This document shows, piece by piece, positions 3,619-33,459 of a stretch of DNA of 39,917 nt. How positions within the stretch are numbered: the stretch's first letter is position 1; each line of letters starts with the position of its first letter. The translations under genes and the position numbers were made by a program. Below the pieces are notes generated by a model. That model did no database searches. It was not told the DNA's origin and was given only the letters and a program-made list of their open reading frames with translations. Where the stretch lies: the IMG/VR virus record IMGVR_UViG_2851976983_000004; one strand, 5' to 3'. Source of the stretch: a virus (Duplodnaviria > Heunggongvirae > Uroviricota > Caudoviricetes).

Positions 3619-4812
3619 TTAAACCCCTTTGACAACGTCAGCGTTGACCTGTGGAACCCCGATTTCAGCGGCCAGATTCATGGCGGCTATCACCAGGTTA
3701 CTGACGGCCAGCGGATACAACAGGCTGACCATATTTTTACGATGACTTCCCGGATTGCTCAGGCGGGCACGTATGGCATCCACTGCACTGGCGTCCATAA
3801 TGTCCGTCAGTTGTTTACCTGCCCGTTGCAGTTTGAACGTCAGAAACTCTTCAAGGTTATTGTCCAGAGGCAGAAGTTCGACCACCTCACAGCGCTGAAC
3901 GACTTCACGGACTTCCATATTGCGTTCAGACAGTTTTGTCGCCAGTTCCGGCTGGCCAATCAGCACGATGGACAGCAGTTTTTTGAAACCGGACTCCAGC
4001 TCAAAAAAGCGTTTGAGGTGTTTCAGTGTCGGAATGGGCAGACTGTGGGCCTCCTCAATCACCAGAACGTGGCTGAACCCCGCCTGGCTGCTGTCTTTCA
4101 GGACGCGATGCAACTGGCGAAAGCGGGCGTCCTGACTGCGTCTGATGCTTTCCAGTGGTGCGATGGTACTGATAATGGCTTCGGCAATAGCTGCTGCCTT
4201 CAGGGTTTTCCCTTTCACATCGTTGTCTTCCATAGCGATGATGTATGGCTCGATAACAATTACCGGCGCATTCTCGCGGTTGATACGTTCAGTCAGGTCG
4301 CGGCGCAGCGTGGATTTACCCGCACCGGACTCACCGATGACGGCCATAAACCCACCATGACGGGCTGTCTGGTACAACGCCTCACGCACGTAGCGAATGT
4401 CCGGGGTGGTGAACACATCATCAGAACCCTGCATGGCTTCGTCGGCGAACGGGTCACGGAAAAGACCAAACGCTTTTTTGGTTGCCGGGAATAACACCTG
4501 TTTTTTGAGTAACATATTCTCTTCCTCACTGAGGCTCGTTTTATCTGTGGTACCCGCTGTACGGGGAGTGGCCGCGCCCTGTACAGCATCAAAACTCTTC
4601 GCTGTATCAATCCCCTGACTTTCCAGCCAGGACGCAAGACGCCGGCGCACTTCTCCGGGGCTGGTGCGGGGCCACGCGTTATGATTCACAATCTGGGCCA
4701 GCGTGGCCTCAGAAACATCGACAGCTCTCGCCACCACCGCCTGTGGAATACGGGCCTCTTTCAGTTGCTGCTTCAGTACCAGCATGTTTCCCTCCTCAGT
4801 TGCCGTTAACAA
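3619..4812 (-). CDS. MuB-like transposition ATPase (AAA+), N-terminal HTH
   Basis: 397-aa ORF with Walker A GESGAGKST; directly downstream of and overlapping the transposase gene. Confidence 0.85.
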   Translation of the reverse strand: MLTATEEGNMLVLKQQLKEARIPQAVVARAVDVSEATLAQIVNHNAWPRTSPGEVRRRLASWLESQGIDTAKSFDAVQGAATPRTAGTTDKTSLSEEENMLLKKQVLFPATKKAFGLFRDPFADEAMQGSDDVFTTPDIRYVREALYQTARHGGFMAVIGESGAGKSTLRRDLTERINRENAPVIVIEPYIIAMEDNDVKGKTLKAAAIAEAIISTIAPLESIRRSQDARFRQLHRVLKDSSQAGFSHVLVIEEAHSLPIPTLKHLKRFFELESGFKKLLSIVLIGQPELATKLSERNMEVREVVQRCEVVELLPLDNNLEEFLTFKLQRAGKQLTDIMDASAVDAIRARLSNPGSHRKNMVSLLYPLAVSNLVIAAMNLAAEIGVPQVNADVVKGV

Positions 4813-6568: not shown

Positions 6569-7480
6569 TTATGCCTCCAGCCCGTTAATCTGTGGCGTCG
6601 GCTCAGTCAGCCATGAAGGCGCGACATCGCCTGTTGGCTCGTCCGGCAGGTCAAATGTGGAGCGCAGGCTACGCGCTGTGCTTTCCAGTTGACAGACCAG
6701 GCCTGCCATGAAGTCTCTGGGGGTATCAATCATGTTTTCAGCACAATATGCGCACAGTGTCTCAAAAGCGCTGGACAGTCGAACGGCGATGGCAGATTCC
6801 GCCTCAACCGCTAACGCGGTCACTTCCGCCCGCAGTTTCTTCACCTCTTCATCAGGCTCAGGTGGCTGAATACGGGATTTCTTCTCCAGTCTGGTGGAGA
6901 GTGAGTCTATTTTTTCATTTTTATCGGCGAGAACACGCTGTTGTGCTGCGTTGGTTTCGCGCGCTTCACGCAGGGCCTGACGCAATTCACGTACTGACAT
7001 GCGATCAACATCGTCAAGCGTCATGCCGGCAACTGTGCCGCCGTCGGCCAGTTCGGCAAGCTCTTCGTCGTCTTCTGTCATTAATTCGAAAAGTTTGGCT
7101 TTTCCCAAATGTGCCAACGTTGGCACATTTGGTTTCAGCGCCGGGGATAAGTATTTTGTCGATGCTTGCATCATTCTCACAGATGTCCGGTATGCCAGCC
7201 CCAACTCACTTTCAAGAATCTTTATAAACTCCCCGTGTGGTTCATTTTCCTTAAGGATTATCAGCCGCTTACCTGCCTCCAGCATGGCCTCAGCGCTCTG
7301 TGCCATATAAAAGCGTGCCTCATGGACAACACGATCGCGCTCATAGGGCAGACCATCGCCGAACTGTTGCATGATTTCCATGCGATGCTGTGTCATGGCG
7401 TTTAGACTGACATTGAGATCATCCGACAGCGGTACCTCGACGTTCAGTTCAGTGCTAACCGGTGATTTGGTGCGTCCCAT
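6569..7480 (-). CDS. hypothetical early protein, acidic with coiled-coil region
   Basis: 303-aa ORF between the regulator genes and the transposase; stop 4 bp before transposase start; family not recognised. Confidence 0.55.
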   Translation of the reverse strand: MGRTKSPVSTELNVEVPLSDDLNVSLNAMTQHRMEIMQQFGDGLPYERDRVVHEARFYMAQSAEAMLEAGKRLIILKENEPHGEFIKILESELGLAYRTSVRMMQASTKYLSPALKPNVPTLAHLGKAKLFELMTEDDEELAELADGGTVAGMTLDDVDRMSVRELRQALREARETNAAQQRVLADKNEKIDSLSTRLEKKSRIQPPEPDEEVKKLRAEVTALAVEAESAIAVRLSSAFETLCAYCAENMIDTPRDFMAGLVCQLESTARSLRSTFDLPDEPTGDVAPSWLTEPTPQINGLEA

Positions 7481-7490
7481 TGATTACTCC

Positions 7491-7799
7491 TTACAAACGA
7501 CTACCTGAAATAACACGTTGGTTGATTTCGTTAATGCGATCCTGTGCACGTGCCATCTCGTTACTGTGGGCCATGGCGATCTGCAGCAACTGGATGCCTG
7601 GTGCGAAACGCCCGTTTTCCAGTTTCAGGGCTAGTCCCTCTTCGATAAGGGTATTGAGTGCTCGATTGATGTTCGCCGGGGACTCATCTAGGGCTGATGC
7701 CAGTTCACCGTTAGAAACACCGTTCAGAGAGTGACCGCGTAGAGCTTTGAGTACACGTAGGATGCGGGTCCCGGAACTGGAGATATTTACTTTACTCAT
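7491..7799 (-). CDS. putative winged-helix DNA-binding regulator
   Basis: ORF 7491..7862; internal ATG at 7799 (MSKVNISSSGTRILRVLKAL...) avoids overlap with ner-like gene; start uncertain. Confidence 0.5.
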   Translation of the reverse strand: MSKVNISSSGTRILRVLKALRGHSLNGVSNGELASALDESPANINRALNTLIEEGLALKLENGRFAPGIQLLQIAMAHSNEMARAQDRINEINQRVISGSRL

Positions 7800-7851
7800 G
7801 TCACATTTCCATTTTTGCAATATGTGATAACCTGTTGCATATATGGAAAAT

Positions 7852-8040
7852 TTATGCCGCATTTGACGTGGGTTTTAATCCCAGCTTTACGGCAATTTCA
7901 TGGGCTTTGCCGTAACGAGCTTTGGTCTGTCCATTGAGAACACGATAGACCTCATTGCGGCTGTAGCCGTGTTCTTCGGCCCAGCGGGTAAACGTGATAC
8001 CACGCTGACGGAAGAGAGTTTTAACTTGTTCGGAAGTCAT
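7852..8040 (-). CDS. ner: Ner/Nlp-family DNA-binding protein (Cro-like early regulator)
   Basis: 62-aa ORF, FTRWAEEHGYSRNEVYRVLNGQ...AVKLGL resembles Ner/Nlp family; first gene of leftward operon; AAGGAG before ATG. Confidence 0.75.
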   Translation of the reverse strand: MTSEQVKTLFRQRGITFTRWAEEHGYSRNEVYRVLNGQTKARYGKAHEIAVKLGLKPTSNAA

Positions 8041-8087
8041 TGTTGTCTCCTTTGTTGATGCAATGATGTTTGTTTTATATGTGATAG

Positions 8088-8116
8088 ATTATGAGAACTA
8101 TTGTTCTCATTGTCAA
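8088..8116 (-). promoter_or_regulatory. candidate early promoter: -35 TTGACA, 17-nt spacer, -10 CATAAT
   Basis: On minus strand TTGACA (8116..8111), spacer, CATAAT (8093..8088), about 45 nt upstream of ner-like ATG. Confidence 0.5.
8091..8110. promoter_or_regulatory. perfect 20-bp palindrome ATGAGAACTATTGTTCTCAT, candidate operator
   Basis: 8-4-8 perfect inverted repeat lying within spacer and -10 of the candidate early promoter, between divergent regulator genes. Confidence 0.55.
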
Positions 8117-8552
8117 TGAGGTTTATGTGAATTTTGATTCTCTTTGCGCGTCGCGGTTCAAAGCTGAGCGTTCGCGGTTATCACTCAAGCAGGCTGAAGT
8201 AGCAGCCCTTTGTGGCGTTTCAAGAGAAATGTGGGGGAAATATGAACGAGGGGTTGCAGTTCCCGGAGGTGAGTTACTTGCAGCCTTTGCAAGAATTGGG
8301 GCCAACGTACAGTTCATTCTTACTGGGGAATCATCAGGTATAACTTTATCACGTGATGAAATGGAGTTACTTCAGCACTACCGGCAAGCACCGTTACAAG
8401 TCAAAGGTTCAGTTTTGTCGGCATTGACGACTGGCTCCTCCAGAGAACGGGCGGAACAGGTTATTCATGGAGATGTTCTGGGGAATGTTATCAAAGGTAA
8501 CGTAACCATAGGAACAGGTGGAATAATGAACAAAAATACAAAGAGAAAATGA
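8091..8552 (+). CDS. XRE-family HTH repressor (candidate lysogeny repressor)
   Basis: HTH segment LSLKQAEVAALCGVSREMWGKYERG; divergent from ner-like gene. ATG at 8091 lies inside the palindrome, so the real start may be GTG 8127 (GAGG upstream). Confidence 0.7.
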   Translation: MRTIVLIVNEVYVNFDSLCASRFKAERSRLSLKQAEVAALCGVSREMWGKYERGVAVPGGELLAAFARIGANVQFILTGESSGITLSRDEMELLQHYRQAPLQVKGSVLSALTTGSSRERAEQVIHGDVLGNVIKGNVTIGTGGIMNKNTKRK

Positions 8553-9535
8553 GTAAAGAGAAGCAAACAGTTAACGGAGATGTGGGTAACGTTGTCAGCG
8601 GTGATGTTACCATTCATAACTATTCTGCTGACATACTTCCCTCTGCCCAGCAACCAATTTCGTTGCTGCAAAAACGCGATTTACACAGATTGATGGATGA
8701 ATTGGTTGATCTGGGGGAAAGTAAGCGCGAACTATGGATGACGATCCACACGAAACTTAATACCAAAACAGTTAATGAAATGACTGCGGCTGATTATCAT
8801 GGTGCGGTTGAGATCCTCCAGAGATATGCACAACAGATCCAGAATATGAAGGACTGTAATCTTCTGGTCAGCAAAATAATGGTGCTTACTGACCCTAGGT
8901 ATCGTCTTGACCGTGACAGATACTGTCTGAAGCATTTCGGTACAACCCATCTTAAAGGCCTGGACAAAGAGCAGTTGCAGGCTGTGTTTGGTTATTTTGA
9001 TGATCTGCTGAATATTCGTGATGAGAGTAAAACTCTATCACCTCCATCGGACAGCGGGGCAAAATCAGTCGCGACTGTACCAACCAGAAGCCGGAAGCCT
9101 CATGTAGTAGTGTTGGGGGGAGCGTTAGTTCTTGTCGCAATATTTTTCGTGGGAATGATTGTGTTCGCTGGTAAATGGGGAAATGCTAAAGCAGTAGCAT
9201 CTACTGAAACCAGCGTTTTTAACATTAAAACCAACGACAAAATAATAGAAGATTCCATCCCAGCATTACGCAGCATGTTTCCAGGGTTAAATAAGTACTC
9301 AGATGATTTCCATTCGGTTTCAAGCTACAAGCAAAAATCGGGCTGGCATACCCTTAAATTCACGGTGTCTACACAGGCAATAATACCTGAATCTTATGGT
9401 GTTAAAGGGAAAACTTGTTACATCAACATAAACCCCGATGGTCGTTATGCCCGTGTTTTGACCGCCCCATGTAGAGCTCTATTACTTGACCAACAAAACA
9501 CTCCAGATAGTAAATATCGTTATATTTTGAAATAG
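8549..9535 (+). CDS. membrane protein, unknown function (single central TM helix)
   Basis: 328-aa ORF, ATGA overlap with repressor stop; hydrophobic stretch VVVLGGALVLVAIFFVGMIVFAG; AT-rich. Confidence 0.6.
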   Translation: MSKEKQTVNGDVGNVVSGDVTIHNYSADILPSAQQPISLLQKRDLHRLMDELVDLGESKRELWMTIHTKLNTKTVNEMTAADYHGAVEILQRYAQQIQNMKDCNLLVSKIMVLTDPRYRLDRDRYCLKHFGTTHLKGLDKEQLQAVFGYFDDLLNIRDESKTLSPPSDSGAKSVATVPTRSRKPHVVVLGGALVLVAIFFVGMIVFAGKWGNAKAVASTETSVFNIKTNDKIIEDSIPALRSMFPGLNKYSDDFHSVSSYKQKSGWHTLKFTVSTQAIIPESYGVKGKTCYININPDGRYARVLTAPCRALLLDQQNTPDSKYRYILK

Positions 9536-31128: not shown

Positions 31129-33127
<1,999 letters not shown>

Positions 33128-33459
33128 TCATAGGCGAAAAGGAAGCCAGTCATTATCTTTTAGCAATGAATATGACGTGCAAGACCTTCTCCATGCATTG
33201 CTCAGACCATGGGTTCAGGACATCCGCCCAGAAGAGTTTACTCCAAGTTACGCTGGTTCAAGTACTCGAATGGATTTTTTGTTACCTGCGCATAAATTAG
33301 TACTGGAAACCAAAATTGTTCGTGATCGTTCTCATGCAAAGAAAATCGGCGATGAACTTATTATCGATTAGACTGGCCCCCTGAATCTCCAGACAACCAG
33401 TATCACTTAAATAAGTGATAGTCTTAATACTAGTTTTTAGACTAGTCATTGGAGAACAG

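Follow-up and report, generated by a model that had tools for sequence, protein, structure and literature searches.

A candidate two-operator immunity switch at the early promoter of a BcepMu/B3-type transposable prophage of Escherichia coli

INTRODUCTION

Which DNA sites would the XRE-type repressor of a Mu-like prophage occupy to shut off its early promoter, and how many such sites are there? The question is raised by the short region between the divergent ner-like and repressor genes of the viral record IMGVR_UViG_2851976983_000004, a stretch of 39,917 nucleotides (nt) that was analyzed at its full length and is called the window here. The window holds a BcepMu/B3-type transposable (Mu-like) E. 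coli prophage. Positions 7400-8900 are 100% identical to prophages of several E. coli strains, B7A among them, 126 of 5,426 complete E. coli genomes contain 80% or more of this segment, and the closest phage record is Escherichia phage PhiKM, classified in Bcepmuvirus.

A preliminary description, made from the sequence alone, had drawn attention to an inverted repeat over the early promoter (Pe), taken it for the immunity operator and suggested that this phage family may use a single dyad. Our comparison of related loci favors a two-site repressor/operator switch at Pe, a reading that we hold with good confidence. Its first site, O1, fills the promoter spacer; the second, O2, appears to be a degenerate copy of O1 placed on the start codon of the repressor gene. 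As read from the sequence, the whole lysis/lysogeny switch would be packed into about 55 bp (8088-8142).

RESULTS

A promoter scan of 7400-8700 returned Pe as the sole sigma-70-like site. Its -35 hexamer TTGACA (8116-8111, minus strand) and -10 hexamer CATAAT (8093-8088, minus strand) are separated by a 17-nt spacer and match the consensus at 11 of 12 positions, just as the preliminary description had read them; family comparison shows a TTGACA-like -35 hexamer throughout and agrees with the -10 assignment. From the position of the -10 hexamer, the early transcript is predicted to start at about 8080-8082. Between the hexamers lies O1, ATGAGAAC-TATT-GTTCTCAT (8091-8110), whose 8-nt arms are perfectly complementary around a 4-nt center. 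It had been called a perfect 20-bp palindrome; the 8-4-8 inverted repeat is indeed perfect, but the center TATT is not self-complementary, so that there is no true 20-bp palindrome. The conserved core, GAGAAC-N4-GTTCTC, spans 8093-8108 with half-site centers 10 bp apart. O1 occupies the entire Pe spacer, and its left arm has 3 nt (8091-8093) in common with the -10 hexamer.

The O1 repeat by itself is not exceptional. Perfect inverted repeats whose arms are 8 nt or longer and whose loops do not exceed 6 nt number 9 in the window, compared to a mean of 3.5 in shuffled sequence. The search for further copies of the half-site ATGAGAAC, which had been proposed earlier, yielded one further exact copy, at 33328, which is unpaired (10 of 100 shuffles give at least 3 copies). 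Since repeats of this size are not rare across the window and the one other half-site copy is unpaired, the case for O1 rests on its position and on comparison. Its position is exceptional: arms of at least 8 nt occur within the 25-nt promoter core in 0.1-0.4% of random or shuffled cores, and among 56 distinct related promoters, 61% have a perfect repeat in this core whose arms reach 6 nt or more, as do 3% of controls.

Two sets of related loci were assembled. One consists of 80 loci obtained by scanning bacterial genomes with the Ner-like protein (the Ner-sampled set); the other, an independent sample, consists of 80 IMG/VR viral contigs retrieved with an alignment of six repressor N-terminal domains (the repressor-sampled set). 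About 150 related loci have the same promoter with a dyad in the same place. In most Ner-sampled loci, the top-scoring promoter before ner has the form TTGACA-17-(C/A)ATAAT and carries a spacer dyad, which varies by the type of the divergent repressor.

The closest relatives illustrate this well. PhiKM is 85% identical to the window up to 8092, where the match stops, inside the Pe -10 hexamer. Its equivalent promoter reads TTGATA, TGCTCATAATTATGAGC, AATAAT with a 17-nt spacer, and this spacer is a different perfect 18-bp palindrome, TGCTCATAA/TTATGAGCA (the slash marks the center); its XRE repressor, of 118 amino acids (aa), differs from that of the window. In PhiKM and in two further loci, L003 and L004, the Ner proteins are 89-91% identical to that of the window (91% in PhiKM) and the leaders 86-91% identical, whereas the spacers are at random-level identity (12-24%) and the repressors are unrelated to the window's. 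The opposite is seen in Serratia and Pseudomonas loci: their Ner proteins are only 66-73% identical and their leaders differ, but GAGAAC-N4-GTTCTC is kept, and their repressors are 50-54% identical to that of the window over the N-terminal 90 aa. The same core thus stands in the same Pe spacer in E. coli, Serratia and Pseudomonas loci with the same repressor type.

Across 50 distinct loci, spacer similarity was correlated with repressor identity (Mantel r=0.66, p<=0.0005; r=0.66 also as a partial correlation that controls for Ner) and not significantly with Ner identity (r=0.09, p=0.11), although the sampled loci are interrelated, so that permutation p-values overstate their independence.

The repressor's recognition helix also changes with the dyad. 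Nearly all repressor-sampled loci with the helix VSRE(M/I)WG(K/R)YERG have (AT)GAGAAC-N4-(G/A)TTCTC(AT) directly adjoining TGTCAA. Helices of the form xRE[M/I]WG go with the half-site GAGAAC, SREMWS with GTGAAC, SRETWG with GAGATC and [T/K]RETW[S/T] with GTGATC. Residue 4 of the helix (M/I or T) tracks base 5 of the half-site (A or T), and residue 6 (G or S/T) tracks base 2 (A or T). The C-terminal halves of the repressors have been swapped among homologues, while the helix-turn-helix (HTH) domain and the operator stay paired. Because the dyad changes with the repressor type and not with ner and the leader, the comparison strongly supports the earlier proposal that O1 is the immunity operator. 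O1 is very probably the main site at which the repressor shuts off the early promoter.

Within the O1 family consensus, the arms are near-invariant, and the central TWTA is variable and A/T-rich. Near-invariant arms around a variable center are the usual pattern of operators of the P22 and 434 kind. Natural variation in O1 is found among near-identical E. coli prophages at positions equivalent to 8094, 8102 and 8103. Three E. coli-type viral contigs carry such changes, each with an unchanged O2: a G to A change in the right arm (ATTCTC) in L089, a TATA center that creates a perfect 10+10 palindrome in L092, and an A to T change in the left arm (GTGAAC), accompanied by Shine-Dalgarno changes, in L093.

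Allowing at most one mismatch, GAGAAC-N4-GTTCTC is found at two other sites in the window, 5878 and 32908, where 0.06 would be expected. We rejected both as operators. The first lies within the transposase gene and is identical in heteroimmune PhiKM, which points to coding sequence and not immunity; the second lies within istA of an inserted IS21-family element. TGAGAAC at 7935-7941 was likewise rejected as a half-site: it codes for Ner's conserved VLNGQ, and PhiKM has it too.

The protein that would bind O1 is the immunity repressor encoded at 8127-8552 (plus strand), 141 aa long when read from GTG 8127 and assigned from domain and structure matches. Pfam searches matched HTH_31 (30.7 bits, cut-off 27) and HTH_3 (23.2 bits, cut-off 23). 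Comparison of the N-terminal domain with the PDB gave P22 C2 (E=9e-5) and the 434 repressor (E=0.02), and there was a weak match of the repressor to 'Regulatory protein C' (E=0.043). HTH_31 and HTH_3 were the only matching domains, with none of the Mu-repressor/MuA type. No match to the LexA-like self-cleaving Peptidase_S24 domain was obtained in the Pfam search of the 141-aa protein, and RecA-driven self-cleavage is therefore not expected.

The NCBI annotation (PGAP) starts this open reading frame (ORF) at ATG 8091, that is, inside the left arm of O1, which is the overlap with the first annotated ATG that the preliminary description had pointed out. GTG 8127 is in frame with this ATG, and the annotated form is 12 codons longer, with the N-terminus MRTIVLIVNEVY... 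Several observations support the shorter form, as had been suggested. A start codon occupies the position of GTG 8127 in the six closest loci: GTG in the window, L022, L024 and L052/L053, ATG in L057 and TTG in L039. In these loci it follows a conserved GGGG, GAGG or GGTG by 5-6 nt. In the window this Shine-Dalgarno sequence is GAGG (8118-8121, plus strand), 5 nt before the GTG; it is kept in homologous loci, where it directly follows the reverse complement of the -35 hexamer. The ATG within the dyad is out of frame with the repressor gene in L022, and in L093 and L095-L101 a TGA stop comes straight after it in the left arm (ATG-TGA). The repressors of PhiKM and of phage B3 also begin at the point equivalent to GTG 8127. 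On this comparative evidence, ATG 8091 would belong to the operator half-site and be in frame by accident.

The start codon itself is part of the second dyad. O2, ATGTGAAT-TTTG-ATTCTCTT (8125-8144), is recognized as a degenerate copy of O1 by family conservation and co-variation. It was noticed when the related loci were aligned. Its core, GTGAAT-TTTG-ATTCTC (8127-8142), equals O1 at 9 of 12 arm positions, and over the outer 7+7 nt it matches O1 at 12 of 14, a score reached by none of 500 shuffled patterns. O2 spans codons 1-5 of the repressor gene, the GTG start included. It lies upstream of the Pe -35 hexamer, roughly at -46 to -61 as counted from the Pe start, in an A/T-rich stretch, with its center 34 bp from that of O1.

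O2 recurs in the family at a nearly fixed distance. When each of 66 distinct repressor-family loci was searched with its own O1 pattern, a match of at least 9 of 12 was found within 40 nt beyond the -35 hexamer in 73%, compared to 1.5% with shuffled patterns; on a control stretch inside the gene the mean score was 6.0. In 52 of the 66 loci, O1 and O2 are 33-34 bp apart. O2 also changes in step with O1. Scored against all O1 classes, the O2 region gave the highest score with its own class for GAGAAC, GTGATC and GAGAAA; in the GAGATC class, which holds 2 loci, the own-class score was joint-highest, tied with GTGATC. For example, GTGATC-TATA-GATCAC at O1 is accompanied by GTGACG-GATA-GATCAC at O2 (L157, L159, L160), GAGATC-TATT-GATCTC by GTGACT-TTTA-GATCTC (L110), GAGAAA-AATA-TTTCTC by GTGGAA-AATA-TTTCTC (L146), and GTGACT-TTTA-AATCAC by GTGACT-TTTG-AATCAC (L158). 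The encoded repressor N-termini vary by class (VNFDSL, VTDRSP, VENISL), and for this reason the constraint on O2 would be at least partly on the DNA. Thus, the idea of a single dyad operator gives way to a pair of sites, as judged from their conserved spacing and joint change. An earlier count, restricted to exact copies of the half-site beyond those in the operators themselves, had shown a modest excess around the operators in 34 relatives (13 versus 5.5 expected) and was set aside for the mismatch-tolerant dyad test.

It could be argued that O1 is the sole operator and that the similarity at 8127-8142 is a by-product of the conserved protein N-terminus. The O2 of the window has 3 mismatches to O1 and encodes the conserved VNFDSL, and only 12 of 34 Ner-sampled loci with unrelated repressor types have a significant second dyad, 18-35 bp away. 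We nevertheless consider this explanation unlikely. The GTGATC, GAGATC and GAGAAA classes have changed the O2 region, and with it the encoded N-terminus, to match O1, and the position of O2 is fixed at 33-34 bp. Unrelated repressor families share the layout, as B3 also appears to, and GTG starts are over-represented (39 of 62 loci, with 17 ATG), as expected if the GTG is part of a half-site. Conversely, the placing of a start codon at the beginning of O2 may explain why GTG starts are so frequent.

Several points weigh against a two-site switch, in addition to the interrelatedness of the loci mentioned above. O2 lies in coding sequence, where the conserved N-terminus (V/M)NFxSL could explain part of its conservation. 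In loci with GCGAAC variants of O1 (L103, L104, L113), O2 does not track O1 and remains of the ATTCTC type. The 33-34 bp spacing corresponds to about 3.2 helical turns, a non-integer number. No plus-strand sigma-70 promoter for the repressor gene reaching 9 of 12 positions was found between 6400 and 8130. Finally, the whole case for the operators is built on sequence comparison.

The position of the dyad directly upstream of ner, in ner's own promoter, raises a second alternative, namely that it is the site of the Ner-like (Cro-like) protein or is shared by Ner and the XRE repressor. Common operators for Cro and CI are the rule in lambdoid phages. We regard a Ner site here as very improbable. 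Ner is nearly identical in PhiKM, L003 and L004 despite their unrelated dyads, and clearly more divergent in loci with the same dyad; the partial Mantel correlation between operator and Ner is 0.02. So conserved a protein cannot specify sites so variable.

The repeat might also act as RNA, either as a hairpin in the 5' leader of a repressor transcript that begins further upstream or as a terminator, and not as protein-binding DNA. The plus strand at 8082-8150 does fold to -16.2 kcal/mol (z=-2.1) with an 8-bp stem, and the dyads of relatives keep their symmetry through changes in both arms. However, there is no T run after the stem and no terminator-like site, Rfam gave no credible match (one microRNA-model hit, at 7803-7855, was far below threshold), and the Shine-Dalgarno sequence is outside the stem. 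Moreover, the element always lies exactly between the -35 and -10 hexamers, its sequence tracks the repressor recognition helix, and the 4 nt at its center, rich in A/T, vary freely as they do in operators. Such an RNA function therefore seems highly doubtful. That the palindrome arose by chance in an A/T-rich intergenic region can practically be dismissed: three to four inverted repeats of this size are expected window-wide and 9 were seen, but a dyad occupies this position in 61% of related promoters and in 3% of controls, and distant genera share the identical core.

In the two-site switch that we favor, a repressor dimer on the O1 core would block access of RNA polymerase to the -35 and -10 hexamers of Pe. 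With Pe blocked, the prophage would stay silent and incoming phages of the same type would be blocked as well. A second dimer, most likely acting together with the first, would bind the weaker O2 and tighten the repression of Pe. All repressor-gene transcripts would cross both O1 and O2, and occupancy would thereby also limit repressor synthesis. We infer the binding, the cooperativity of the two sites, the autoregulation and the repressor promoter(s) from the anatomy of the region, its positional conservation and its co-variation.

The end of PhiKM homology also suggests how far the immunity module extends. As compared with this heteroimmune phage, the module would consist of O1, the Pe -35 hexamer, O2 and the repressor gene, leaving outside the Ner-like gene and its leader, which are common to different immunity types. 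One could go further and view it as a compact, portable cassette with its left recombination boundary in the Pe -10 hexamer and Ner excluded, a start codon that serves as half an operator and a readable code between helix and half-site; this fuller proposal is tentative, and we lean against rather than for it.

The gene downstream of Pe encodes a 62-aa Ner-like protein of the BcepMu gp16 family (7852-8040, minus strand; TIGR04111, 93.9 bits, cut-off 34; PHROG 925), and it comes first among the genes of the Pe-driven early operon. It is followed on the minus strand by genes for an IclR-like HTH protein, a DUF3102 protein, a transposase of 589 aa (rve-type, IS481/IS21-like, DDE) and an AAA+ protein (3619-4812) with an AAA_22 domain. 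This run, from ner to the AAA+ gene, makes up a Mu-like transposable phage's early operon.

In the leader of ner, the minus strand carries the element ACAAAC-ATCATTGCATCA (8056-8073). The motif is placed at a fixed 21 nt from the Pe -10 hexamer in enteric and Pseudomonas loci of any immunity type, the Pseudomonas version being ACAAAC..ATCATCTTTGCATCAC. The conserved Ner-like protein might bind here. Leader similarity was not significantly correlated with Ner identity (r=0.13, p=0.09, in an ungapped comparison) and lends this idea no support; the candidate Ner site is a lead taken from the conservation of the motif.

Transcription of the repressor gene could begin at either of two extended -10-like sequences on the plus strand. 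The first, TGATAGATT (TGaTAGATT, 8082-8090), is a weak candidate for a promoter of the kind called pC2 (see below) and overlaps the Pe -10 hexamer; its TG-N-TAGATT is conserved in enteric relatives. The second, TGATAACCT (7825-7833), is between ner and the next gene and is also conserved in enteric relatives. Both matches fall within a repeated 10-mer, ATATGTGATA, present at 7820-7829 and at 8077-8086, just downstream of the Pe -10 hexamer; each copy yields a plus-strand TGnTAnnnT match. The preliminary description had spoken of face-to-face promoters, a layout that remains unproven. With the 8082-8090 candidate, the only one nearby, the two promoters would overlap and point away from each other. 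For them to face each other, the repressor gene would need a distal promoter on the far side of ner.

An imperfect 44-bp inverted repeat, TTTCCATTTTTGCAATATGT / ACCTGTTGCATATATGGAAA, is located between the ner stop codon and the next gene (7806-7849). It contains ATATGTGATA, and its core ATATGTGATAA is conserved in enteric relatives. As RNA, the plus strand folds clearly better (-16.6 kcal/mol, z=-4.0) than the minus strand (-10.9 kcal/mol, z=-1.8), a hint that the early operon may have an antisense transcript. The element could hold repressor promoters, or it could be a site for Ner or the IclR-like protein.

On the other side of the switch, an ORF at 8549-9535 without a Pfam match overlaps the repressor stop codon (ATGA), and the two genes are for this reason probably co-transcribed. 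The repressor tail (aa 108-128, RAEQVIHGDVLGNVIKGNVTI, encoded at 8448-8510) resembles a segment near the N-terminus of this ORF (KEKQTVNGDV-GNVVSGDVTI, 8555-8614), with 11 of 21 residues identical (pairwise E=4e-4).

Further into the early operon, the DUF3102 gene (6569-7480, minus strand) contains a perfect 28-bp palindrome, CCAAATGTGCCAAC/GTTGGCACATTTGG (7105-7132), which is unique in the window. At these codons PhiKM (L002, about 2706-2733) also carries a perfect 28-bp palindrome, but of another sequence, CCAAAACGCTCAGC/GCTGAGCGTTTTGG, each change in one arm being compensated in the other. Perfect palindromes of 20-28 bp, mostly of the form CAAA(A/T)-N7-(A/G)C·G(T/C)-N7-(A/T)TTTG (the dot marks the center), are found in many relatives (L005, L007, L021, L023, L027, L030-L035, L038, L040, L048, L050, L059, L060, L075, L077 and L080), at the same DUF3102 codons in those with aligned proteins. 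The palindrome encodes a variable 10-aa stretch (PNVPTLAHLG versus PKRSALSVLG) between well-conserved protein segments. By analogy with parS, it could serve as a DNA dyad whose specificity varies and which the DUF3102 protein itself perhaps recognizes; alternatively, it could form a strong RNA hairpin in the early transcript. A literature search on DUF3102 returned nothing relevant.

Among the late genes, the prophage carries an IS21-family element (31195-32996, minus strand) with istA (340 aa, 31974-32996) and istB (260 aa, 31195-31977). Given this insertion, the prophage may be defective.

DISCUSSION

Our results place the switch with the immunity regions of the B3/BcepMu phages, where a lambdoid-style repressor and operator are found in a transposable phage. 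In B3, TTGACA, the dyad GGTGCCAAATATTGCACC and CACTAT stand upstream of the ner-like ORF17, and ORF18, annotated as similar to P22 c2, starts at a GTG in the dyad-like GGTGACAGAAAAATCAC, a likeness that was read from the sequence and not scored. The operator specificity differs, being GTGCC... in B3 and GAGAAC in the window. In the B3-like phage Fc02, a temperature-sensitive repc mutant is heat-inducible, and repc, at the homologous position, is a genetically proven immunity repressor (PMC9936078). RNA-seq of Fc02 placed a proximal promoter, pC2, in overlap with pE, an overlap also reported for B3, and a distal promoter, pC1, from which an antisense transcript passes through ner and provides the lysogen with repressor (PMC9936078). 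By analogy, the promoters of the window may be arranged like those of Fc02, although pC1 has no clear counterpart in the window. The Fc02 paper defines no operators (PMC9936078), and our literature search found no paper that defines those of BcepMu/B3-type immunity regions.

The lambdoid right operators (P22 c2, 434 cI, lambda cI) resemble the switch in many respects. The HTH N-terminal domain of the window's repressor is detectably homologous to those of P22 C2 and 434. In both systems, the operators are dyads of 16-20 bp with half-site centers 10 bp apart and an A/T-rich variable center; they overlap the lytic promoter, comprise more than one adjacent site and adjoin a divergent small regulator gene. 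Heteroimmune relatives differ in both repressor and operator. In contrast to the three lambdoid sites, however, the window has two, with O1 wholly in the spacer and O2 on the repressor start codon, and it belongs to a transposable phage. Lacking a detected S24 domain, and with a Cro-like partner that is invariant with immunity and unlikely to use the same operators, the switch is not a full member of the lambdoid family.

With Mu, the region shares its gene order (a divergent repressor, then ner and the transposition genes A and B) and the silencing of an early transposition operon. The DNA-binding domain of the Mu repressor is related to that of MuA, and the Mu repressor binds many copies of a short asymmetric consensus over three operators (O1-O3), with an IHF site. 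The window instead combines an XRE/Cro-C1 HTH repressor with two simple dyads, and its Ner-like protein is of the BcepMu gp16 family; in repressor and operator, the switch does not resemble Mu. When 7700-8300 was searched for repeats, the two dyads were the only elements that matched each other, the Mu consensus not being among the patterns searched for. The contrast with the multi-site Mu operators drawn in the preliminary description stands insofar as the layout is far simpler, though with two dyads and not one.

A more distant likeness is offered by the C proteins of restriction-modification systems, small XRE-type HTH dimers with two adjacent, unequal dyads beside their own gene. C proteins activate, then repress, their own promoter. 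In the window, the strong site is in the divergent lytic promoter, and nothing suggests activation.

This is the kind of switch that would be expected biologically, and it introduces no new principle. It has a direct consequence for annotation, the corrected start of WP_001259267.1, a protein found in prophages of at least 126 complete E. coli genomes; the mis-start is probably repeated in every genome that carries the prophage. It also provides a precise pair of candidate operators for these Mu-like prophages, which are widespread among enteric bacteria and in Pseudomonas. If the tentative cassette view is true, Ner would act at the conserved leader site and work across heteroimmune phages, the start codon as half an operator would tie autoregulation to the frequent GTG starts, and the family would be a natural set of orthogonal repressor/operator pairs whose immunity groups are predictable from sequence. 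Since dyad and recognition helix change together, the immunity groups of BcepMu/B3-like prophages, and the incoming phages that a given lysogen would block, could be read from sequence.

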